The position numbers and the translations under genes are program-made. From Candidatus Micrarchaeota archaeon (GTDB lineage: Archaea > Micrarchaeota > Micrarchaeia > Burarchaeales > JAKAKT01): a stretch of 42,261 nucleotides of DNA. Of this stretch, positions 1 through 20,139 are shown one piece after another. The notes under the pieces are model-generated. The model searched no databases. It had not been told where the DNA came from and worked only from the letters and a program-made list of their open reading frames with translations. Every line of letters begins with the position of its first letter. Position 1 is the first letter of the stretch. The stretch is from the NCBI GenBank assembly GCA_043814255.1, contig JBDRKD010000034.1:1-42261 (forward strand), in the 5' to 3' direction.

Positions 1-2
1 CC

Positions 3-653
3 CACCACCAGCTTGTTGTGGATACGTCATGCACCCAGGAGATCGGGGACCCATGCATCACCGATGCTGATTGCTGCGGCATACCCTGCTACGAGGATTT
101 CTTCGGGAGCAAGGAGTGTAATATATTCCCCCCTGCAAATATGCATTCCACTGCATATACTACCGACTCGGCATGCGCAGCCCCAGACCCGGACAACTGT
201 CTTGTGGATGCAGACTGCCCCTGCTCAGGGGAGTGCGTCACATATCCTGATGAGACGAACCCACCAACGTACATATCGGGGAATTGCGCGTTCCCAGACC
301 TTGACCAAACAGACTTCGCGCCATTTGTCGATCTCACTGACCTATCCCCCGGGACATGCAATTCCATGCTCTCTAAGTGCTGGTGGGTCAGGAACATGGG
401 TAAGGCTCCGGCATCAAAATCAAGGGTCATCGACATAAGCGAAGGTATGCTGGTATATCTTGTATCGCCGTTTCACTTGCCTAGCTTTGTGCTGATGGTG
501 CTCGAGTCATGGATTCCATACCTGTTGTGGCCCGTCATGGCGGCAGTAGTCCTTTCGATTCTGGACATCATCATATGCATAACGTTCTTCAAGAGTATCT
601 CCGAGGCCATAGGCGGAGAATCATCGATACTTGGCCTCACGAGGGCATTATGA
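3..653 (+). CDS. 5'-truncated membrane protein with Cys-rich extracellular repeats; first visible member of the tandem paralog array
   Basis: Frame is open from position 3. It has Cys-rich units (CITDADCCGIPC, CLVDADCPCSGEC) and ends ITFFKSISEAIGGESSILGLTRAL, the C-terminal motif shared with the downstream paralogs. Confidence 0.8.
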   Translation, partial: HHQLVVDTSCTQEIGDPCITDADCCGIPCYEDFFGSKECNIFPPANMHSTAYTTDSACAAPDPDNCLVDADCPCSGECVTYPDETNPPTYISGNCAFPDLDQTDFAPFVDLTDLSPGTCNSMLSKCWWVRNMGKAPASKSRVIDISEGMLVYLVSPFHLPSFVLMVLESWIPYLLWPVMAAVVLSILDIIICITFFKSISEAIGGESSILGLTRAL

Positions 654-662
654 GTGATATCA

Positions 663-1559
663 ATGGTACTTGAATGTTTCACTGGTCAGATGTATGGCAG
701 GGATATTTGGGTAATGTTATCCTTGCTCATCATGGTCCTCATAATATCGTTGGCATATATGGTCTCAAGGATTCTGCATAGGATTGAGTGGGAGGCCTGG
801 GCGAGGAACGAGAGCTACCAGGTAATAGTTTCAGCTGTCATCGCATCGAGCATGATATTCATTGCAGACATCTCATGCGTCGTTTCAACAGACCTTGCAG
901 GGGGCGATGCATTCGATATTGCGGAGCAATTCCTGACTTCGAATTACCATGAGGGAATATCTATAATCTACAGTCTCTACGGGATAGTTGCGCAGCTCGA
1001 TTTCATGGCGAACTTCCAGATAGCATCTGCCACAAACCCAATGTTCATTAAACCGATGTTCCCCGGACTCAGCGCAATTGCGCAGCATATACGCTCAGTA
1101 ATCGCCATCATTGCCCTTCTCTCAGGGAACCTTATGGTCCAGAAGATAGGGCTCGAGATAATAGAACAGATAGCATTCAATATCCTCCTCCCACTGGGCC
1201 TCGTGATGCGCGTGTTCCCATGGACACGCGATGCAGGCTCGTTCGTAATAGCTGTGGCATTCGGGTTCTACATAGTGTTTCCACTGACATATGTGATGGC
1301 ATCAGAGGTGATGGATGCACTTGCGCTTGATGACGAGGGTAATTGGACCAGCTTTGTTGGTTTGCCTGGGTTCCCGCTCCCGGGTCCAGGGGCATTCTTC
1401 CTCATAAACCTGTTCTTCGGCCCGCTCACCACACTATTCTATGACATCAGGAATCTTGACATTATCCTCGCAGCCACGTTCTTCCCAGTTCTCAGCATTA
1501 CAATAACTATAACATTTATCAAAGCCCTAACCAAAGCGATAGTACACCATACAGGATGA
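663..1559 (+). CDS. Polytopic membrane protein, CedA/VirB6-like paralog 2
   Basis: ORF 654-1559; ATG 663 preferred. Motifs WEAWARNESYQ, LLPLGLVMRVFPWTRDAGSFVIAVAFGFYIVFP and ITITFIKAL. Confidence 0.8.
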   Translation: MVLECFTGQMYGRDIWVMLSLLIMVLIISLAYMVSRILHRIEWEAWARNESYQVIVSAVIASSMIFIADISCVVSTDLAGGDAFDIAEQFLTSNYHEGISIIYSLYGIVAQLDFMANFQIASATNPMFIKPMFPGLSAIAQHIRSVIAIIALLSGNLMVQKIGLEIIEQIAFNILLPLGLVMRVFPWTRDAGSFVIAVAFGFYIVFPLTYVMASEVMDALALDDEGNWTSFVGLPGFPLPGPGAFFLINLFFGPLTTLFYDIRNLDIILAATFFPVLSITITITFIKALTKAIVHHTG

Positions 1560-1563
1560 TATA

Positions 1564-2868
1564 ATGGACAACAGAATGATTGCATTGTTCCTGTTCATTC
1601 TCCTAATCTCGTTTGGATGCGTATCCCGTTTCGCACCAGGGGGAGGGGCATGCACGGTACCTGGAGATAGCTGTGACCAAGCTTTAATCGATTTAGGCCT
1701 AGAGCCTCCATGCTGCCCAGGCACTGAATGCATCTCAAACCCTTTATCAGAACCAACGCGATGCCATTACACCCTCATGAGCTACTGGAGTTCATGGATC
1801 ACGTTGGCACTCCTAGCGATTCTGATATCTGCGTTCATCGTCGCCCTAGCTTACATGATTGCATACCTCCTGAGCAACCAGATGCTCCTTGCATGGGCGA
1901 AGAGCGAGTTCTTCCAGGTCATTGCATCAGCAGTCATTGTTGGCTCAATAATGGGCGTGCTGTTCTTGATGCAACAGACCATCGCTTCAGAGATCAACGC
2001 AGCTGGGGCGGCATCCGGTGTTCCATTCGACTTATGCGATGCAGCAACCGTATCTCCATCCGGCATTCCGAACTGCCATATCCTGCTCGCCCACGAATAC
2101 ATGCAAGTGATGTATGATGACGCAGGAGAACTGGCAAATAGCATCCTTGTCACCAACACCGTGTTCACCCTACTGAGGGGCCTCTCGTTAGGTGTGGAAT
2201 TATTCGCGCCTCCTTACTTCGGCATAAACGTCGTTCCGCTCGCAGGGCTTGGGATACCTGCGGAGACGTTGACAACTGCACTGGATGCAGTGCTAAAAAT
2301 CATGATGGTCATGAAGATGCAACAGCTGCTGCTGAATTATATAGAGTCTACCCTGTTCCCAGTCCTGATGATTATGGGACTGGTGCTTAGGTCGTTCTTC
2401 TTCACAAGGAAGCTCGGCGGCCTGCTAATAGCAATAGCCGTAGGTTTATACCTCGTATATCCATTGATTTATGTACTGGCCCACAATATCTGGCTCAATA
2501 CAATCTACAAGGACAGGGCACTTTCAACTAGCTACAATACAAACATAGACAGCTACCTTCTCTTCTCATATGTTGATGAGGACCTCATGAACGTCGTCCA
2601 TCCAGAGCTTGCTGTTGGGGAGACCCTGTTCGACAGGCTCATAAAAATGAGGGTGAACAGCGGGGGGCTATATAACAGCATTCTTCCATACATAAATGGA
2701 GATTTCATCATAGGCGATGGCGGGTATCTGGAGAAAACTGGCGTCATGCTGGTATATGCGACATTCATCCCATTTATTGCCCTTATGGTGACAATAGGTT
2801 TCGTGAGGGGCCTTTCCATAGCATTGGGCGGAGATGTTGAGATCGCAGGCCTCACCAAATTCATATGA
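1564..2868 (+). CDS. Polytopic membrane protein, CedA/VirB6-like paralog 3, with lipobox and Cys-rich N-terminus
   Basis: Signal peptide ending LISFGC, then a Cys-rich segment. Motifs LAWAKSEFFQ, GLVLRSFFFTRKLGGLLIAIAVGLYLVYP and GFVRGLSIALGGDVEIAGLTKFI. Confidence 0.82.
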   Translation: MDNRMIALFLFILLISFGCVSRFAPGGGACTVPGDSCDQALIDLGLEPPCCPGTECISNPLSEPTRCHYTLMSYWSSWITLALLAILISAFIVALAYMIAYLLSNQMLLAWAKSEFFQVIASAVIVGSIMGVLFLMQQTIASEINAAGAASGVPFDLCDAATVSPSGIPNCHILLAHEYMQVMYDDAGELANSILVTNTVFTLLRGLSLGVELFAPPYFGINVVPLAGLGIPAETLTTALDAVLKIMMVMKMQQLLLNYIESTLFPVLMIMGLVLRSFFFTRKLGGLLIAIAVGLYLVYPLIYVLAHNIWLNTIYKDRALSTSYNTNIDSYLLFSYVDEDLMNVVHPELAVGETLFDRLIKMRVNSGGLYNSILPYINGDFIIGDGGYLEKTGVMLVYATFIPFIALMVTIGFVRGLSIALGGDVEIAGLTKFI

Positions 2869-2878
2869 TGTGTTTTGG

Positions 2879-4012
2879 ATGAAGAAGAACGGACTTGCAT
2901 TTAAGGCGTTCCCACTGCTCCTAGCAGCAGTTCTTCTCAGCGGGTGCGCCGGTCTGACAGTTTCTTCAATTGGGGGGGCTCTTCCATCAGATCTCCCCGA
3001 CTGGCTCCCAATAGCAATCATCGCAACAGCCATATCATTCATGATAATCTCCATAGTGTACCTGGTCGGCACACTGCTCAATGTGCAGGATCTTGTGCTC
3101 TGGGCGAAAAACGAATTCTTCCAATCAGCAGCTGTTGTCATAATGCTCAGCATACTCATGGTGTTCTTCAGCTTTCTGGATACTATGCTCATCCCAGGCA
3201 TAACGGCCACCTCAAGCGGAGGCCCTTTCGACATTAGTGCGAACAACATCTTCGATGCAGCCCAGAACTACCTTGCAAACATCAATGCAATATTCATTGC
3301 AGAGTTCACAGCCCTCCTGTACCTTAATGTGACCCTCGGCCTTTTCCAGGACGCCACAATCAGGGTCATGCCAATGGGTATCGGGTTCATCATACAGCCA
3401 GGAGCGCTCTTCACGCCACTGTTCCATTTCGTTGGCTATGGGTTGAATTTTCTTGGAATAGCAATATGGGCAGTCCAGATCCAATACGCGATACTGGAGT
3501 TCTCCAAGAACTACATGTTCAAGCTGTTCCTTCCGCTTGGTATAGTCTTCCGCTCAATGCCATTCACAAGAGGCCTAGGCGCGGTCCTGATAGCCATTGC
3601 AATAGCTTTCTATGTAGTATACCCACTCACATTCGTGCTTAACATGGAGATAGCGACAAATCACTATTCATCAGTCAATCATGCTCTGCTCATAACAGAT
3701 TTCAATGCATGGGTCTTCAATTTCGCCAAGGGAAACCCATTTGGTTCAGGCGATCTAAATATACTCAACTACTTATGGTATATCGCAAGGCTCATTATGG
3801 TAGTCGGTGTAACGTCCCTCTCGCTCCCGTTATATCTCTGCGCCAATCTCTTCGGCGATACCGGCATAGTGCAGGAGATGTTCTATGCAGTGATAACATT
3901 CACGATGATTCTTCCAATAATAAACGTCTTCATCACATTCACATTCGCAAGAGGGCTGGCGAATATCCTTGGTGCTGACGTCGATCTGAGTAGCATAACA
4001 AGGTTGATATGA
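2879..4012 (+). CDS. Polytopic membrane protein, CedA/VirB6-like paralog 4, with lipobox
   Basis: ATG 2879 gives MKKNG...LLSGC. Motifs VLWAKNEFFQ, LPLGIVFRSMPFTRGLGAVLIAIAIAFYVVYP and TFARGLANILGADVDLSSITRLI. Confidence 0.82.
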   Translation: MKKNGLAFKAFPLLLAAVLLSGCAGLTVSSIGGALPSDLPDWLPIAIIATAISFMIISIVYLVGTLLNVQDLVLWAKNEFFQSAAVVIMLSILMVFFSFLDTMLIPGITATSSGGPFDISANNIFDAAQNYLANINAIFIAEFTALLYLNVTLGLFQDATIRVMPMGIGFIIQPGALFTPLFHFVGYGLNFLGIAIWAVQIQYAILEFSKNYMFKLFLPLGIVFRSMPFTRGLGAVLIAIAIAFYVVYPLTFVLNMEIATNHYSSVNHALLITDFNAWVFNFAKGNPFGSGDLNILNYLWYIARLIMVVGVTSLSLPLYLCANLFGDTGIVQEMFYAVITFTMILPIINVFITFTFARGLANILGADVDLSSITRLI

Positions 4013-5124
4013 TGTACAGGAGGACATTAAGGACATTGGCGTTGTTCCTGCTCCTTATCAGCATTGCGCATGCGCAACCGACTGCGTGCGATGCAATACA
4101 GATAACAAACTACTGGAACCTCCGCTTCGGCTCATGGCCGGACATATGCATGCTCGGCATGCTGATATCATTCTTCATAATCTCCGCACTATACATGATC
4201 TCACATCTCCTTGGGAAACCAGGTCTGGCGGCGTGGTGCAAGAAGGAGATATTCCAGATAGCGATTACCGGAATGATTCTGGCAGGGATATTCGGCTTCA
4301 TGACATTCACATGCACATACATAAAACCGTCCCTCTTGGTCGATGTTCCGCCTGGACACACTGATGATTTATTCGAATATTCCAAGGAATATGTTCGGTG
4401 GCTCAGGGACACATCATACAAGAGCTATGTTTCGATGTCCCTAATGAATTCAGTAATTTCCGGGATATCCATGACGTATGTGCGTTCGAGCCCAGGCGGT
4501 TTCGGCATAGACCTCCGGCCGTTGCAGGGTCTCTCAGCCATAGGTGGGCTGTTGTCATTTTCCATGAACTCAGTCCTTATTGGTGGTGTAATAACAAGTA
4601 TAGCCCACCTCAGGATGCTGAAGGCAGTTGAGATAATGATGTTCAACATACTGCTTCCAGTGGGACTGGTGTGCAGGTGTTTTGAGCCGATAAGGAGATT
4701 TGGAGGTTCACTCATAGCAATAGCACTGGGTTTCTACCTATTCTATCCGTTCCTACTAATCATAAATGCAGGCATCATTGAGGGGAATCTTTTGATTGAC
4801 GCAGATGTGGACGCCTCAGTTTCTACCGTTGGAGCATGGGACTATGTCAATGAACTCTCCCTGGACGTGAATTACCACAGATATATGGATGCCCATGACC
4901 CTAGCTACCTTGACCCAAATCTCGCCACCGAAGGTCCTGGCCACATTGAAATGACGAATTACGCGAATATATTCGACATCCTCTACGATATAGCGCTATA
5001 CATACTCATAGCAGCACTCTTCCTCCCACTTTTCAATTTCATACTCCTCATAGCGTTTATCAGAAACCTGTCACAGGTTCTTGGGGAGGAGGTCGACGTA
5101 AGCCACCTCACCAGGATGATTTGA
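4009..5124 (+). CDS. Polytopic membrane protein, CedA/VirB6-like paralog 5
   Basis: ATGA overlap with the previous gene. Signal peptide (AHA-Q). Motifs AAWCKKEIFQ, LPVGLVCRCFEPIRRFGGSLIAIALGFYLFYP and FIRNLSQVLGEEVDVSHLTRMI. Confidence 0.82.
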   Translation: MMYRRTLRTLALFLLLISIAHAQPTACDAIQITNYWNLRFGSWPDICMLGMLISFFIISALYMISHLLGKPGLAAWCKKEIFQIAITGMILAGIFGFMTFTCTYIKPSLLVDVPPGHTDDLFEYSKEYVRWLRDTSYKSYVSMSLMNSVISGISMTYVRSSPGGFGIDLRPLQGLSAIGGLLSFSMNSVLIGGVITSIAHLRMLKAVEIMMFNILLPVGLVCRCFEPIRRFGGSLIAIALGFYLFYPFLLIINAGIIEGNLLIDADVDASVSTVGAWDYVNELSLDVNYHRYMDAHDPSYLDPNLATEGPGHIEMTNYANIFDILYDIALYILIAALFLPLFNFILLIAFIRNLSQVLGEEVDVSHLTRMI

Positions 5125-6180
5125 ATGAAGAGAAAAACAATTGCATTGCTCCTGATCCTGCTGCTTCCTAGCATGGCATTTGCGCAGTGGGCGGACGATA
5201 TGCGTAATCTGGTGGCAGCCCAATGGAGCAGCGGCTCCTGGGACGTGCTATGTGGTTTGGCGCTGTTCATATCGTTCCTCATAGCCATCTTGGCGTATAT
5301 GCTATCCGTAATCATTGGGTCCCCAGACCTCAAGCGTTGGGCCAAGGTGGAGTTCGTGCAAGTGGCAGCCTCCGCCGCGTTGGTCCTGGGGTTAATAGTG
5401 TTTGTAAACCTGCTGCTCAGCAGCATATCTGGAATTGCTTTTGACTTGGCCGATACGTCAACACCCGCAGTTCCGCTCCCTGATCTTCGCAAGGAAAACC
5501 CCTTCGCCGTTGCCCACTATTATCTTGATGTCCAGATGAATTGTGTGAAGAACTACTATCGCATAGTGTTCATCCTTAACTTCCCTCTGGAGATAATCGA
5601 GAAGACAGTGTTGCCTACTGGTGGCATGGAGGAGGTTACGGGCTGGCCCCTGAGCGGCCCAGTCGGTTTCCTGTATTGGATGGAGCATCAATACACATTC
5701 ATCCTTCTTGCAGGCTATTTCCAACGCCATCTCCTCGTGTTCATAGAGGATAATATGTTCACGCTATTCCTTCCATTGGGCATATTCCTGAGAATCCTGC
5801 CATACACGCGAGGGGCCGGCGGTGTGTTGATGTCAATCGCAATCGGGATGTTTGTTGTTTTCCCAACGATGTATGCCGTTCTTCTTGTGGCAATGCCCGA
5901 TGTGCCATGCGCAGAAACAGCTCCAAGCGTCTATGCTTGCGGTTCTCCAGAACCGCGCTGTCTTGCCTACTCCCTTTCATATATGCGGGATCACCGCAAC
6001 TTCGTGAACCTTGAGAACTTCATCAAGACAATTGCAATGGAACTAAACCTCATAATGATTTCCTCAGTCATCTTCCCACTAGTCAACATAACAGTTACAA
6101 TCACATTCATCCGTGCAATCATGCAGTTCCTTGGGGCAGATGTCGCCGAGATGGGCCACGGGATAATAAAGATAATCTGA
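5125..6180 (+). CDS. Polytopic membrane protein, CedA/VirB6-like paralog 6
   Basis: Abuts the previous stop (TGAATG). Signal peptide (AFA-Q). Motifs LKRWAKVEFVQ, LPLGIFLRILPYTRGAGGVLMSIAIGMFVVFP and TITFIRAIMQFLGADV. Confidence 0.82.
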   Translation: MKRKTIALLLILLLPSMAFAQWADDMRNLVAAQWSSGSWDVLCGLALFISFLIAILAYMLSVIIGSPDLKRWAKVEFVQVAASAALVLGLIVFVNLLLSSISGIAFDLADTSTPAVPLPDLRKENPFAVAHYYLDVQMNCVKNYYRIVFILNFPLEIIEKTVLPTGGMEEVTGWPLSGPVGFLYWMEHQYTFILLAGYFQRHLLVFIEDNMFTLFLPLGIFLRILPYTRGAGGVLMSIAIGMFVVFPTMYAVLLVAMPDVPCAETAPSVYACGSPEPRCLAYSLSYMRDHRNFVNLENFIKTIAMELNLIMISSVIFPLVNITVTITFIRAIMQFLGADVAEMGHGIIKII

Positions 6181-6277: not shown

Positions 6278-6562
6278 TCAGCTAGTTGGTGGAAGTTTTG
6301 GTTTTGGAGGGTTAGGTTTAGCTGTATGACCATAAATCAATCCGAATACCCATAGCAAAATACCGATAACCATAATTGAAAACTTCAGAGGGGTCCAAAA
6401 AGTTACTTCTTCCCAACTACCACTCATGGGAGGAAACGTCGCACATGAAGTAAAAAACAACCACAGAAACCCAAGTGCAAAAAGAACGGCTCCTCCTTTT
6501 TTGAATGTGTCTGGTTTATTCAATTCACCAATTAATCCCATACATTCAACTATAATTTCCAC
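6278..6562 (-). CDS. Small two-TM hypothetical membrane protein with Pro/Lys-rich tail
   Basis: Two hydrophobic segments; C-terminus PNPPKPKLPPTS; more AT-rich than its neighbours. Start uncertain. Confidence 0.6.
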   Translation of the reverse strand: MEIIVECMGLIGELNKPDTFKKGGAVLFALGFLWLFFTSCATFPPMSGSWEEVTFWTPLKFSIMVIGILLWVFGLIYGHTAKPNPPKPKLPPTS

Positions 6563-6644: not shown

Positions 6645-7190
6645 TCAGACCTCTGCTTTCCCCCAATCCAACTCGAAATTCTCGGTGAATTCCCTCGCCA
6701 CCCCCCCATCATCAATGAGAACAGAATACTCCCTGTTCTTCTTGAGCGCGCTGTATGACCAGTTAGTGCTCCCCACCAATACTCTCTTCCCATCCACTAT
6801 CATTGCTTTCGTATGTGTCAACTTATACTCAAGCGATGCCCACCTTACCTCAAGTCCGCCTGCCCTAAGGTACTCCATCATCTCAAGGTTTGGGTTATCT
6901 CCAAAAAGCCTGGGCTCAAGTATCACACGCACCCTAACTCCCCGTTCCCTAGCCCTAATGAGCTCGTCTGCAAGAGGTTCATAGTTGAACAGGTACATCT
7001 CCAAGTCTATTGTCTCCCCTGCGCTCCGTATAACTCCTATGATATCATCCTCAGCATCCGGCGAGAATATGTACTCAATCTCCCCATTGATGCATCCACT
7101 CTTCTCTTCCACATGCATCGATGAAAAGGCAAGGAATCCAAACAGCACACCCAAAACAAACACTGCCAAAAGCAGAAGTTGCTTGTGCAT
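6645..7190 (-). CDS. Membrane-anchored phospholipase D superfamily protein with a single HKD motif (Nuc-like nuclease or lipid enzyme)
   Basis: N-terminal TM anchor; HTKAMIVD (HxKxxxxD) followed by GSTNWS and NRE. Confidence 0.88.
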   Translation of the reverse strand: MHKQLLLLAVFVLGVLFGFLAFSSMHVEEKSGCINGEIEYIFSPDAEDDIIGVIRSAGETIDLEMYLFNYEPLADELIRARERGVRVRVILEPRLFGDNPNLEMMEYLRAGGLEVRWASLEYKLTHTKAMIVDGKRVLVGSTNWSYSALKKNREYSVLIDDGGVAREFTENFELDWGKAEV

Positions 7191-7223
7191 ATCGTTTTAT
7201 TACTAACACCACAATTAATAAGC

Positions 7224-7916
7224 ATGGATGCAAAGTTGGAGTCTGACCCATACAAGCTGTTTCCTGGGAAAAGCATAGTGGTGATGGGCCATCTGTTCTC
7301 GGAAGCGGAACGTTACGTGTACTATTCAGCCAACAGGTTCATCAAGAAAGAAGAGGATAACTGGGCCATATGGATATCAACAGACACCCCATACGGGAAG
7401 ATAAAGGAGAAATTTAAGGAATATGGCTTTTTGCTTGAACAACAGGAGGCACATCCTATTGCAGAACTCCCAGATGAAGCGAACAAGAACATACTCTTCT
7501 TGGACATGATATCCCACAGGGCCGGCGTTTCCCGCAAAAAGCACGATGACTGCAGATACCTCCAAGACCCAAGCAACCTTACCGAACTATCCCTAGCGAT
7601 AAACGAAGTGCTGGCGAAGAGGAAATGCGGTCTGATAATTCTGGATTCTCTCAATAGCCTATTGGTATACAACGACCTGACCAAGACCCTCCAGTTCCTG
7701 CGGTTCCTCTCAGCGGCGGTTTACGAGAAGAAGATGACCCTTGTGGTCTATTTCGTTCTTGGGGAGCAGGACCCGAAGATAGAGACATCAATAAAGATGG
7801 CCGCAGATGCGTCGATTATTTTCGATAGCGACCACATGTCTATCCAATTCGGTTCATCCCAAAAAGCATTCAGATTCGAGTTCTCAGGAGAAGAGCTTAA
7901 ACTCTTCAATCCATAG
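7224..7916 (+). CDS. Degenerate KaiC/RecA-like ATPase-domain protein
   Basis: Walker B-like LIILDSLNSLL and DPSNLTELS are present. The expected Walker A position reads VMGHLFSEAE, with no GKT. Confidence 0.75.
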   Translation: MDAKLESDPYKLFPGKSIVVMGHLFSEAERYVYYSANRFIKKEEDNWAIWISTDTPYGKIKEKFKEYGFLLEQQEAHPIAELPDEANKNILFLDMISHRAGVSRKKHDDCRYLQDPSNLTELSLAINEVLAKRKCGLIILDSLNSLLVYNDLTKTLQFLRFLSAAVYEKKMTLVVYFVLGEQDPKIETSIKMAADASIIFDSDHMSIQFGSSQKAFRFEFSGEELKLFNP

Positions 7917-11488: not shown

Positions 11489-15200
<3,712 letters not shown>

Positions 15201-17805: not shown

Positions 17806-19221
17806 ATGCGTACTAAAAACATTGCCGCAGGTTTAATCATAATCGCAACAGCATTACTCTTCTATGCATTGCTTGTTTCGGATGCGAACGGCTTCATAAA
17901 ATTCCTCTTATCACTTGTGCTTCTCGCAGGCTGCGGGCTAAGCATCCAATCACTGCTTGGTCTTGAAGGCGAATACGGGCTCCTTCTCATAAGGACGAAA
18001 AAGGGTCTTGAGTACATAGATGTACTGGCAAACGCGGCCCCCCGTTTCTGGCAAGGCTGCGCAGACTTTGGCACAGTGCTTGGTTTTGGCGCGTCATCGA
18101 TCTTCTTCTTTAAGAAAATCCCAAAGAAGACATATCTTTTCTCACTATTTGCTCTCATCATTGTTTCGCAGACTATGATGCAGGAGGTGTTCCATGTAGT
18201 TGTAACTCTCATCAACATACCTGTGGAGTTGGGGGGCCTATCAGACCACGGAGGCCCCGTGGATATTCTCCTACCAATAATAATAATCTTCTCAATGCTC
18301 TTCTTCGGGTTCTGCGGAGTGACTGTCGTGGGCCTCATAGCGAACAGTTATTCTATACTTTCAAACATAATCGGAGTAATCCTCTCGGTCCCAGGAGCGG
18401 ATCTTGCGGACGCGGTGCCCGGCGCATCACCAGTCATACCTGGCATAAACATGCCATTAATTGAAGGCCTCATAGCCCTGGCATTCCTCCTATTCATACA
18501 TGAAGCATCTCATGGGATCCTATCCAGAATAGGCAAGATAAAGCTTGAATCTGCAGGCCTGCTGTTGTTCGGCATAGTTCCTGTTGGGGCGTTTGTTGAC
18601 CCAGACGAAAAATCGCTTGCTAAAAAAGATATTGATGTACAGACAAGGGTATTTTCAGCAGGTCCAGCATCCAACATGATAGTATTCATAGTAATGTTTT
18701 TCATCTTACTGGCGTTTGAATCGTTCTCAGTACCATATCTGGATCCCGGGGTGTATGTGCACTCAGTCGACTTCAACTCCTCTGCCTACAACGCCAACAT
18801 AACTACTGGGACATCGCTAGTCTCAATCGATAACATCCCAATAACTTGGGACAACCTGGAGCAGTTCAGGTCATTGGTGACCGACAGCGAATCAGTAACG
18901 CTCCAGACAGATGCCGGAACCCATGTTCTAGAACCGAAGGAATCGGTTCCCGGGGGAGAAAGAACCCTCGGATTACGTCTCCCACCGCAGCGATATTACC
19001 TGGGCGATTACTACTGGATGGGATTCATCAAGAACACACTCGGCCTTATATTCGTCCTCAATTTCCTTGTTGGTGTGATAAATTTCATGCCGATGTTTAT
19101 GGCATTCGATGGCTATAGGATACTATCACTCCACACTAAGAACAAAATGATTGTGAAAATAATCTCTTATGCATTACTGGCGATGCTCCTTCTCAACTTC
19201 GTTCCTTGGCTCTGGAGGTAA
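17806..19221 (+). CDS. Site-2 protease (M50) with PDZ-like insert
   Basis: Motifs HEASH, GAFVDPD, AGPASN and NFMP...FDG. Confidence 0.92.
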   Translation: MRTKNIAAGLIIIATALLFYALLVSDANGFIKFLLSLVLLAGCGLSIQSLLGLEGEYGLLLIRTKKGLEYIDVLANAAPRFWQGCADFGTVLGFGASSIFFFKKIPKKTYLFSLFALIIVSQTMMQEVFHVVVTLINIPVELGGLSDHGGPVDILLPIIIIFSMLFFGFCGVTVVGLIANSYSILSNIIGVILSVPGADLADAVPGASPVIPGINMPLIEGLIALAFLLFIHEASHGILSRIGKIKLESAGLLLFGIVPVGAFVDPDEKSLAKKDIDVQTRVFSAGPASNMIVFIVMFFILLAFESFSVPYLDPGVYVHSVDFNSSAYNANITTGTSLVSIDNIPITWDNLEQFRSLVTDSESVTLQTDAGTHVLEPKESVPGGERTLGLRLPPQRYYLGDYYWMGFIKNTLGLIFVLNFLVGVINFMPMFMAFDGYRILSLHTKNKMIVKIISYALLAMLLLNFVPWLWR

Positions 19222-19259
19222 TTTCAACAAATTACTTGAGCGAAAGGTTTAAATACTTA

Positions 19260-19319
19260 TGTTATATATATCTAACATAATGTTAAATAAATACAACAAA
19301 ATGTTGTAAATAAATAACA
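19260..19319. promoter_or_regulatory. Three phased TGTT-N10-AACA operator palindromes
   Basis: Sites at 19260-19277, 19281-19298 and 19302-19319 (21-bp period), downstream of TTTAAATA and upstream of the DUF2178-like/HTH operon. Confidence 0.75.
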
Positions 19320-19330
19320 GGGGTTATAAA

Positions 19331-19951
19331 ATGGAACGAAAACCTGAACAAATATTGCTGAAATTTATGTTAGGGATGGGAATTGGAATATGTTTGATAG
19401 CCACTTATCTAATGATTAAAGGATTTGTGAACTGGGGAATTGTTACTTTAATAATTGGGGTAGTTACAATCGCTGTTAGTTCAAAAAATAAATCTATAAA
19501 GGAGATTGAAAAAACAAAAACAAAAAATAATCTAAGACGAAATGAAAGAATAGGATTGACAGCAATTGTGATAATAAGTTTGTTTGTAATTACAACCGGA
19601 GCTCTATCCTCATATAGTTCTTTCAAAAATGGAAACGTTGCAGGAGGAATTCTAGGAATTATTATTGCAATTTTAATTCTCAGATTTGCTGTATTTGTTT
19701 TTAGAAGAGGAAATAGAGATATGAAAGAAGGATTTCCTTTACAAGATGAAAGAAGTAAGAGAGTATTAGAAAAATCAAGTTCTTTAGCATTCTATGTTTC
19801 GCTTTATCTATTACTAGCAATCGGGTTTTTATCTGACGGCATAATAAAGTTCAGGGATGTCAGCCAAGCAACAGGCCTTGCAATAGGTGGGATGGCTCTG
19901 TTGTTTGCTGTTTTTTGGGTATATTACAACAGGAAAGGGGATGTGGAATGA
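19331..19951 (+). CDS. DUF2178-like membrane protein
   Basis: Multiple TMs; [12 protein letters not shown] motif; largely AT-rich coding sequence. Confidence 0.78.
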
Positions 19952-20139
19952 AAACAAGAGTAAAAGAACTAAGAGCGAGGTATGACCTAACACAGGAGGA
20001 CCTTGCAAGAAAAGTGGGTGTGAGAAGGGAGACAATCGTTTTCCTAGAGAAGGGGAAATACAATCCATCCCTAAAACTAGCACACCAAGTAGCGAAAGTT
20101 CTCAAAACAACAATAGACGAGCTGTTCCTCTTTGATTAG
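19948..20139 (+). CDS. Xre/Cro HTH transcriptional regulator
   Basis: [32 protein letters not shown]; ATGA overlap with the upstream gene. Confidence 0.92.

Follow-up and report, generated by a model that had tools for sequence, protein, structure and literature searches.

Machines derived from type IV secretion systems (T4SS) have been described in archaea. In the accessible portion of their account, Beltran et al. (PMC9905601) describe Ced of the Sulfolobales and Ted of the Thermoproteales as chromosomal, T4SS-derived systems that combine a VirB2-like pilin and a VirB4-like ATPase with a VirB6-like membrane protein, and report homology between N-terminus and pilin for CedA/CedA1 and for VirB6/VirB2. 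CedA also has a paralog, CedE, with five transmembrane (TM) helices, according to the accessible part of PMC11868833. Here we analyze a tandem array of six membrane-protein genes, whose family we name F, on a 42,261-nucleotide (nt) contig (JBDRKD010000034.1, hereafter C34; assembly GCA_043814255.1, genome G000) of a Candidatus Micrarchaeota archaeon; this whole stretch is referred to as the window. We consider it probable that the six genes are ancient, non-interchangeable paralogs of the VirB6/CedA class that most likely form the channel or pilus-base platform of a chromosomal, Ced/Ted-like, T4SS-derived machine conserved across most Micrarchaeota. Besides F, this machine most likely comprises a VirB2-like pilin, a protein that we call c0 in one or two copies, a CedB/VirB4-like ATPase, and a large protein, c4.

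The array extends from the left contig edge to position 6180 of the window, in the following order:

3..653, + strand: g1 (position 1 paralog), C-terminal 216 amino acids (aa), 5′ end open at the left contig edge
654..1559, + strand: g2 (position 2 paralog), 301 aa, the shortest member, with a shortened C-terminal tail
1564..2868, + strand: g3 (position 3 paralog), 434 aa, N-terminus signal- or lipobox-like, Cys-rich N-terminal outer segment
2879..4012, + strand: g4 (position 4 paralog), 377 aa from the ATG at 2879, lipobox-like signal LLSGC
4009..5124, + strand: g5 (position 5 paralog), 371 aa
5125..6180, + strand: g6 (position 6 paralog), 351 aa, with which the cassette ends

A preliminary description of this DNA, made from its sequence, had claimed six co-oriented paralogs with overlaps or gaps of no more than about 10 nt, three shared motifs, and divergent extracellular loops, and each of these features is borne out. 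Junctions between the open reading frames (ORFs) are 0 nt for g1/g2 and g5/g6, gaps of 4 nt for g2/g3 and, if g4 starts at 2879, 10 nt for g3/g4, and a 4-nt overlap for g4/g5. Identity to g2 is 24–29% in a MAFFT alignment of the six paralogs (A1), pairwise BLASTP scores of the complete genes are 62–112 bits, and a six-paralog profile recovers every complete gene at E-values of 5e-96 to 2e-133. The motifs are readable in the translations, with small deviations in g2, g3, g5, and g6. In g2–g6, W(A/C)(K/R)xExxQ lies between the first two hydrophobic helices, and the same genes carry the block L(L/F)Px..R..TRxxG..LIAIAxGxYxxYP, where LM replaces LP in g3, IR replaces TR in g5, and FP ends the block in g2 and g6. 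The last helix and the tail FxRxLxxxLGxxV....LTRxI are found in g1 and g3–g6 and are shortened in g2. Two long loops are unalignable between the paralogs in A1 and contain Cys-rich inserts (14 Cys in the g1 loop, 6 in the N-terminal part of g3). An F protein most likely runs from a signal peptide or N-terminal helix through a TM1—WAKxExxQ—TM2 hairpin and a long variable outer loop to a TM3—TM4 hairpin, followed by another variable outer loop, TM5, and a tail in the cytoplasm.

The g1 fragment, which matches profile positions 209–352, has kept the C-terminal tail motif and the final TM helix, together with a Cys-rich outer loop. Because it matches only residues 289–484 of the 484-aa protein P0012 (51% identity), about 270 N-terminal residues of g1 are missing. 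The ATG at 2879 was preferred as the start of g4 over an ATG at 2834 (392 aa) because the ortholog P0001 (66% identity) begins at the equivalent of 2879. The orthologs of g3 and g6 are P0002 (67% identity) and P0006 (47% identity). We note that g2 starts with a GTG immediately after the g1 stop (window 654–700), and that the signal peptide of its ortholog P0008 is absent both from g2 and from the counterpart of g2 in the second cassette described next.

The same genome holds a second array: contig C60 carries a partial gene followed by five complete genes, and an N-terminal piece lies at the end of contig C73. Both pieces match the 550-aa protein P0038, at residues 19–391 and 394–550, and C73 therefore runs into C60. 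We term the window array type A and the C73+C60 array type B:

C73:16345-17937 + C60:1-5861: type B cassette, a second six-gene set colinear with the window array

The best matches between the two arrays are g2–g2, g3–g3, g4–g4, g5–g5, and g6–g6, at only 26–34% identity, and the two arrays go back to an old duplication of a whole cassette. Among relatives, exactly six members are present in 15/15 distinct complete loci (L025 and L030 counted once; one member of L031 is split by a stop; three loci on short contigs are incomplete). The preliminary description had counted “at least six” genes; the six are present and g1 does run off the left edge, and since every complete related locus holds exactly six, the window array is most likely a set of exactly six genes with g1 cut by the contig end.

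The order of the members is likewise fixed. Over 16 cassettes, the best match of a member in another cassette occupies the same position in 1232/1421 comparisons (a count that excludes L030, L031, the window's truncated g1, and the three loci on short contigs). By member, the counts are 150/221 for position 1, 232/240 for position 2, 231/240 for position 3, 172/240 for position 4, 214/240 for position 5, and 233/240 for position 6, the strongest positional orthology; the shortened tail is always at position 2. From the fixed order and positional orthology we conclude that F was multiplied six-fold before these lineages split and that the order was retained. The pattern argues for six different subunits of one putative assembly and not for a variable array, and the preliminary suggestion of a variable pore does not fit it.

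A related alternative is that the F proteins are interchangeable or variable VirB6-like surface proteins, of which one or a few are used at a time for host-range or antigenic variation, and which do not form one fixed hetero-oligomer. The unalignable loops with their Cys-rich inserts would fit such a device, as would the presence of two divergent cassettes in one genome, the very large inserts in some relatives’ members (1366, 1431, and 1090 aa), and a minimal system described below in which a single F can suffice; moreover, the same use is suggested in the literature for the tandem VirB2 copies of some intracellular bacteria, and tandem pilin paralogs are interpreted as variation devices in the accessible part of PMC12102498. 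However, a constant copy number, a separate ortholog line for each position, and the constant place of the shortened tail are at odds with interchangeability. The tight packing with overlapping stops and starts resembles that of co-translated complex subunits, and paralogs only 24–29% identical give no sign of recent duplication or gene conversion. We regard this alternative as quite unlikely. As an observation in its own right, the oversized members lie at L021 2391–6488 and at L026 2163–6455 and 7754–11023, with open frames of 1366, 1431, and 1090 aa versus the typical 300–450 aa, which points to inserted ectodomains.

Gene order in relatives connects the cassette with the remaining parts of the machine. 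In seven relatives from two families (loci L029–L033, L035, and L036), F, a VirB2-like pilin, c0, and a VirB4-family ATPase form a single gene string. In five genomes of family f2, which belongs to the same order as the window genome, the ATPase gene follows shortly downstream of the cassette on its own strand. There, L029, L031, and L033 carry, in this order, two pilins (c2), six F genes, two c0 genes, the ATPase, a 100-aa protein that resembles the C-terminus of the ATPase, c7, c3, and c4, and L030 and L032 retain the six F genes, c0, and the ATPase. The second family, f14, has a minimal string (L035 on G146:C11 and L036 on G148:C14) of pilin, a single F, c0, ATPase, and c4, contiguous and on one strand, in which hidden Markov model (HMM) matches reach 2e-14 to 4e-14 for the pilin, 1e-62 to 1e-68 for F, and 1e-46 to 1e-50 for c0. 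The single F of L035 and L036 is not closest to any particular cassette position; it could be an ancestral or a reduced state. We note that this single-F form is found in a family most of whose sampled genomes are without the system.

The genome of the window was inspected for a VirB4/CedB-like ATPase and a VirB2-like pilin, and both are present, the pilin next to the ATPase:

C49:2-193 + C37:21035-27793, − strand: own-genome module of pilin, c0, ATPase, 101-aa protein, c7, c3, and c4
C37:25145-26680, − strand: CedB/VirB4-like ATPase, 512 aa, with matches to AAA_10 (4.6e-14), DUF87, P-loop_TraG, and, weakly, TrwB_AAD_bind

A profile scan of G000 gave four DUF87 matches and no match to PF03135. 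The best NCBIfam match of the C37 ATPase is “DNA import protein CedB” (1.1e-20), but at 73.9 bits versus an equivalog cut-off of 700, so it is not a CedB ortholog; the next matches are CedD, VirB4-like CD1110, the VirB4 of a mycoplasma integrative and conjugative element (ICE), TraC, and VirB4_CagE, all under their equivalog cut-offs. Among PDB sequences it matches HerA proteins and the VirB4-like 4ag5 (3.7e-7). An assembly break divides the pilin gene between the end of C37 and the start of C49, which overlap by 24 nt and match the pilin HMM at 2.7e-15 and 4.5e-4, respectively. The c2 proteins (115–143 aa) combine a signal peptide with a two-helix hairpin. One c2 pilin of a relative matches TrbC/VirB2 and T4SS_pilin at an E-value of 2e-4 each, over nearly the whole profiles and below the Pfam cut-offs. 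Many of 87 pilin homologs carry precomputed PF18895 and/or PF04956, and the UniRef name of a protein identical to the pilin query begins “TrbC/V”; a pilin profile search against PDB sequences gave 0 rows. The protein c0 (about 275 aa) has two TM helices and a soluble part and matches neither Pfam nor NCBIfam, and its best E-value in a PDB profile search is 0.35. An ESM Atlas lead (score 0.82) links it to a cluster with a TraC-like family in 23% of members, and our guess is that c0 corresponds to a detached VirB3/VirB4 N-terminal part. The module also includes c3 (about 270 aa), the large bitopic protein c4 (about 810 aa), and c7, which is small, of the CxxC type, and has TM helices. Pilin and ATPase are partly recognised by automatic annotation; F has neither a Pfam nor an NCBIfam model in the libraries searched.

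F is a very large family. The six-paralog profile matches 3011 proteins among 1.84 billion cluster representatives at an E-value ≤0.001, 2288 at 1e-10, and 347 at 1e-30, and the present analysis proposes a likely role for this unnamed family. Fifteen close homologs of g5 are without a Pfam domain and without an informative name. For a divergent F member, 7/18 homologs were named, all Micrarchaeota, and 14/14 loci that a narrower F alignment (A3) recovered from contigs of one genome per species bear the title Candidatus Micrarchaeota or Micrarchaeum. In the ESM Atlas, the nearest clusters are in Archaea, most commonly in the phylum “Microcaldota”; we treat as a lead only a 293-aa cluster (score 0.86; commonest phylum Microcaldota), 23% of whose members carry the CedA1 family PF27251.

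Within the phylum, the F profile matches 178/201 sampled genomes (135/153 among those of high quality). These tallies record presence and not copy number, with at most 10 candidates scored per genome, and include two unpublished genomes, G029 and G198, which are positive for F and ATPase; excluding these two, F is found in 176/199 genomes and the ATPase in 178/199. Families f13 (0/6) and f17 (0/4) gave no match to the F profile among their sampled genomes, and the same holds for f19, f20, f22, f24, and f26, each represented by a single genome; in f14 the profile matches 2/10 sampled genomes. The distribution of the ATPase follows that of F closely. It is found in 180/201 genomes, with identical per-family counts except in f14 (3 versus 2 of 10) and f20 (1 versus 0 of 1), where the extra matches are weak (G056, 6.7e-12; G115, 4.2e-14). 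Strong ATPase matches within f14 are confined to G146 and G148, and no other sampled genome of f14 is positive for F.

The reading of the array as CedA/VirB6-like channel proteins put forward in the preliminary description is supported by the synteny with pilin and ATPase, and the predicted fold leans the same way. The model of g5, built from a 125-sequence alignment, is all-helical with very long helices (pLDDT 87.7, pTM 0.79). A Foldseek search with this model against 350,542 PDB chains gave no match at an E-value of 0.001, and its top two rows are TrwI/VirB6 of the R388 T4SS (8rt9_F, E-value 0.042, probability 0.94; 8rtd_L, E-value 0.067, probability 0.89). No confident match to another transporter family, which had been named beforehand as a refuting outcome, was found. 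When two paralogs were modelled separately, the same two T4SS channel proteins were the best full-length matches among 48,161 chains. A complex prediction of g2 (15–301), g5 (27–371), and the partner g6 (21–351) with their own alignments scored 0.00, which speaks neither for nor against binding. A possible further connection comes from the N-terminus: hhalign of a 48-sequence pilin alignment (A4) against an F alignment (A2) pairs the pilin hairpin with the TM1—WAKxExxQ—TM2 hairpin of F (probability 80%, E-value 1.4e-5, 44 columns), both segments being hydrophobic hairpins. Given this shared hydrophobicity, the alignment may be taken as supportive but not decisive; the ESM Atlas lead to the CedA1 family agrees with it.

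Several results weigh against assigning F to the VirB6/CedA class. The TrbL/VirB6 family PF04610 has 0 matches in the six proteins, 0 genome-wide, and, at E-values up to 10, 0 among 125 family members, and F is therefore not placed in Pfam TrbL. No sequence profile connects F to VirB6/TrbL or to any Ced family, and the F profile A2 finds no VirB6 chain among PDB sequences at an E-value of 10, only ABC-transporter rows at 0.1. The hhalign match may be inflated by hydrophobic composition. In G000, neither F cassette adjoins the ATPase module, and in the well-assembled genomes G136 and G093 F and ATPase lie 75 to about 350 kb apart. Because related genomes are not independent, the co-distribution of F and ATPase is largely one clade-level pattern with few independent events. 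Finally, VirB6 and DotA are single genes and homo-pentamers in the solved machines, and six fixed paralogs do not map onto them in a simple way.

Pfam and NCBIfam scans of all six F proteins gave no credible match, and no Ced-named family is among the NCBIfam matches at E-values up to 1. Three weak candidates were judged to be hydrophobic-helix matches: the NCBIfam “putative transporter small subunit” for g1 (E-value 1.6e-4, 21.5 bits versus a cut-off of 40, 29 residues on the last TM helix), and the Pfam rows Abhydrolase_9_N (7/125 members) and DUF485 (4/125).

These negatives leave room for a new kind of hetero-oligomeric complex unrelated to VirB6, such as a transporter, an anchor of the envelope or S-layer, or a pore for scavenging lipids or nutrients, in which the fold likeness would be generic and the ATPase neighbourhood would reflect a shared envelope function. 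Besides the lack of sequence or profile similarity to TrbL/VirB6 and Ced families, it draws on the position of the window cassette among the housekeeping genes for PGK, GAPDH, and FtsZ and on a near-universal distribution in the phylum, unusual for conjugation-type systems. However, a chromosomal and widely conserved T4SS is already known in analogous ultra-small bacteria (PMC12102498, accessible part). The convergence of the two separately made paralog models on the same T4SS channel proteins, the pilin—F—c0—ATPase string in two families, including its minimal one-F form, and the hairpin alignment between pilin and F also run counter to such an unrelated complex, which we hold to be unlikely.

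A third alternative, that the cassette belongs to a self-transferring mobile conjugative element (an integrated plasmid or ICE) and is not host-owned, is suggested by the likeness of the ATPase to conjugative VirB4/TraC. A tblastn search with the ATPase retrieved 564 plasmid records, 247 of them conjugative, with features named TraC, VirB4-like CD1110, or DUF87 at 22–39% identity, and a second DUF87/TrwB-like ATPase lies on contig C12. In contrast, F is present in most genomes of the phylum, close relatives keep the flanks (PLD-like and PGK genes downstream of the cassette and, on its upstream side, a gene for a class I aminoacyl-tRNA synthetase), and the ATPase is 56–73% identical across the phylum among the best 150 matches listed. 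The GC content over the array is 0.47–0.51, similar to the remainder of the window, and no integrase, relaxase, or repeat boundary was seen beside the cassette, where no search was aimed at relaxase families. A mobile origin of this kind is therefore very improbable, and we retain the chromosomal VirB6/CedA-class machine as the preferred interpretation.

The rest of the window is ordinary chromosome, with genes for PLD-like and DUF835/KaiC-like proteins, PGK, GAPDH, an M50 peptidase, FtsZ, HisRS, and adenylosuccinate lyase; the search of the window for tRNA genes was negative. Two sequencing runs of DNA type contain shares of 0.44 and 0.07 of the sampled words, and no RNA run was listed. The type A loci (window, L015, L016, L017, L022, and L027) lie between housekeeping genes: their upstream divergent gene reads like a leucyl-tRNA synthetase, judging from HIGH and KMSKS motifs in the translation, and PLD-like, DUF835-like, and PGK genes follow downstream in close relatives. 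In the type B loci (C73+C60, L019, L020, L021, and L024), the upstream divergent gene encodes a 900–1460-aa protein that has a signal peptide and a single TM helix besides a large cytoplasmic part. On the downstream side, C60, L019, and L021 encode a protein of roughly 255 aa, a secreted Cys-rich one of roughly 2000 aa, and a Cys-repeat protein of roughly 800 aa, which we guess to be surface partners of the B cassette. The flanking features are:

Window 6278-6562, − strand: two-TM ORF of 94 aa, no Pfam match, directly after the cassette
Window 6645-7190, − strand: PLD-like protein, PLDc_2 at 1.4e-28, same place in L016 and L017
Window 7179-7916, + strand: DUF835/KaiC-like protein, 5.4e-8, same place in L016 and L017
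C73:13350-16562, − strand: 1071-aa membrane protein upstream of the type B cassette of G000
C60:5834-14981: 261-aa protein, 2028-aa Cys-rich secreted protein, and 798-aa Cys-repeat protein downstream of the type B cassette of G000

Other loci deserve brief mention. An 894-aa ORF beside GAPDH (window 12513–15200, − strand) has no Pfam match at an E-value of 1e-5 and occupies the same place in L016. The GC content dips to 0.338 at window 19001–20000, versus about 0.45–0.50 elsewhere, over a 206-aa ORF (19331–19951, + strand) with no Pfam match. The C12 locus of G000 (C12:4226-11232) encodes a 689-aa DUF87/TrwB_AAD_bind-like ATPase with CedD (8e-7) as its best NCBIfam match. The three ORFs that flank it, about 525–547 aa long, have similar N-termini, and similar N-terminal motifs occur in ORFs of C88.

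A working mechanism can be outlined for the proposed machine. The F family would have multiplied six-fold early and then been kept as six specialised subunits, together about 2200 residues long, whose conserved helices would build a hetero-oligomeric ring. The ATPase would energise assembly and transport at the cytoplasmic face, and the divergent, Cys-rich outer loops would form the cell-surface part that meets the pilus or a partner cell. We infer the hetero-oligomer, and likewise the direction of transport and the cargo, which may be DNA, as in Ced/Ted, or other host-derived material. A DNA cargo is suggested by the Ced/Ted precedents, in so far as the accessible accounts cover them, together with the CedB-like ATPase. 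Three observations would also allow a broader role in host contact: the system is almost universal in these reduced genomes, the chromosomal T4SS of Patescibacteria offers an analogy (PMC12102498, accessible part), and VirB4-like ATPases of Nanohaloarchaeota are tied to giant surface proteins in the available part of PMC10266531. More speculatively, one motor may serve two docking heads: rings of six different VirB6-like subunits, sets A and B, would share a single ATPase—pilin—c0 engine, with the fast-evolving loops recognising partners, the giant Cys-rich neighbours of type B contributing, and the whole acting as the main route for uptake of DNA or other macromolecules from partners. We offer this picture tentatively, as one that may well prove wrong.

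The physical exchange of material between DPANN archaea and their hosts is a long-standing question, for which a phylum-wide candidate machine with a defined parts list is now available. The literature searched, with supplements and subscription journals outside its coverage, held no account of this cassette or of a T4SS-like system in Micrarchaeota, and an earlier description is possible; the accessible text of PMC8784108 has no occurrence of “type IV”, VirB, secretion, pili, or conjugat.

Among known systems, TrwI/VirB6 of R388 (7o3v, 8rt9, 8rtd) and DotA of Dot/Icm (9ngy), the best full-length structural matches of the two F models, appear to have in common with F an all-helical polytopic fold in which an N-terminal TM hairpin is followed by long hydrophobic helices. 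As in TrwI/VirB6 systems, F genes in relatives adjoin a VirB2-like pilin and a VirB4-like ATPase. However, no sequence or profile similarity between VirB6 or DotA and F is detectable, the host of F is an archaeal, single-membrane cell unlike the hosts of R388 and Dot/Icm, and, unlike in bacterial T4SS, no counterparts of VirB5, VirB8, VirB9, or VirB10 were identified for the F machine. Several tandem VirB6-like genes occur in the rvh T4SS of the Rickettsiales, which are obligately host-associated and have reduced genomes; these proteins are bacterial and much larger than F, and the resemblance would be convergent. In the accessible part of 10.1101/2025.06.23.660953, DotA is described as VirB6-like; besides long hydrophobic helices it has a signal peptide, a pair of TM helices at its N-terminus, and a disulfide-bonded insert domain; F and DotA are, to that extent, alike in their signal peptide and inserted outer domain, which is Cys-rich in F.

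Analogous ultra-small bacteria rely on a chromosomal T4SS. According to the accessible part of PMC12102498, that of Patescibacteria (candidate phyla radiation) is widely conserved and not plasmid-borne, comprises VirB4, VirB6, VirB3-like, and VirB2-like arrays, and has components reported to be essential for epibiotic growth in one cultured strain. The likeness lies in an ultra-small, host-dependent lineage with a widely conserved chromosomal T4SS, whereas the patescibacterial system is bacterial, of the monoderm conjugation type, and its tandem arrays are pilins and not VirB6.

Also close are Ced and Ted, which share the same three component types with the F machine, and CedB is the best NCBIfam match of its ATPase. 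The homology of the CedA N-terminus to the pilin CedA1 may likewise have a parallel in the hairpin alignment between F and its pilin; the putative likeness of F to CedA/TedA lies in architecture and partners. Unlike in Ced, the ATPase here is without an N-terminal part and is preceded by the separate two-TM protein c0. Moreover, the VirB6-like genes number one or two in Ced and one in Ted, versus six per cassette, in two cassettes, for F. A fixed set of six VirB6 paralogs, if true, would be a new architecture of the T4SS inner channel and a case of a homo-oligomeric ring turning hetero-oligomeric.

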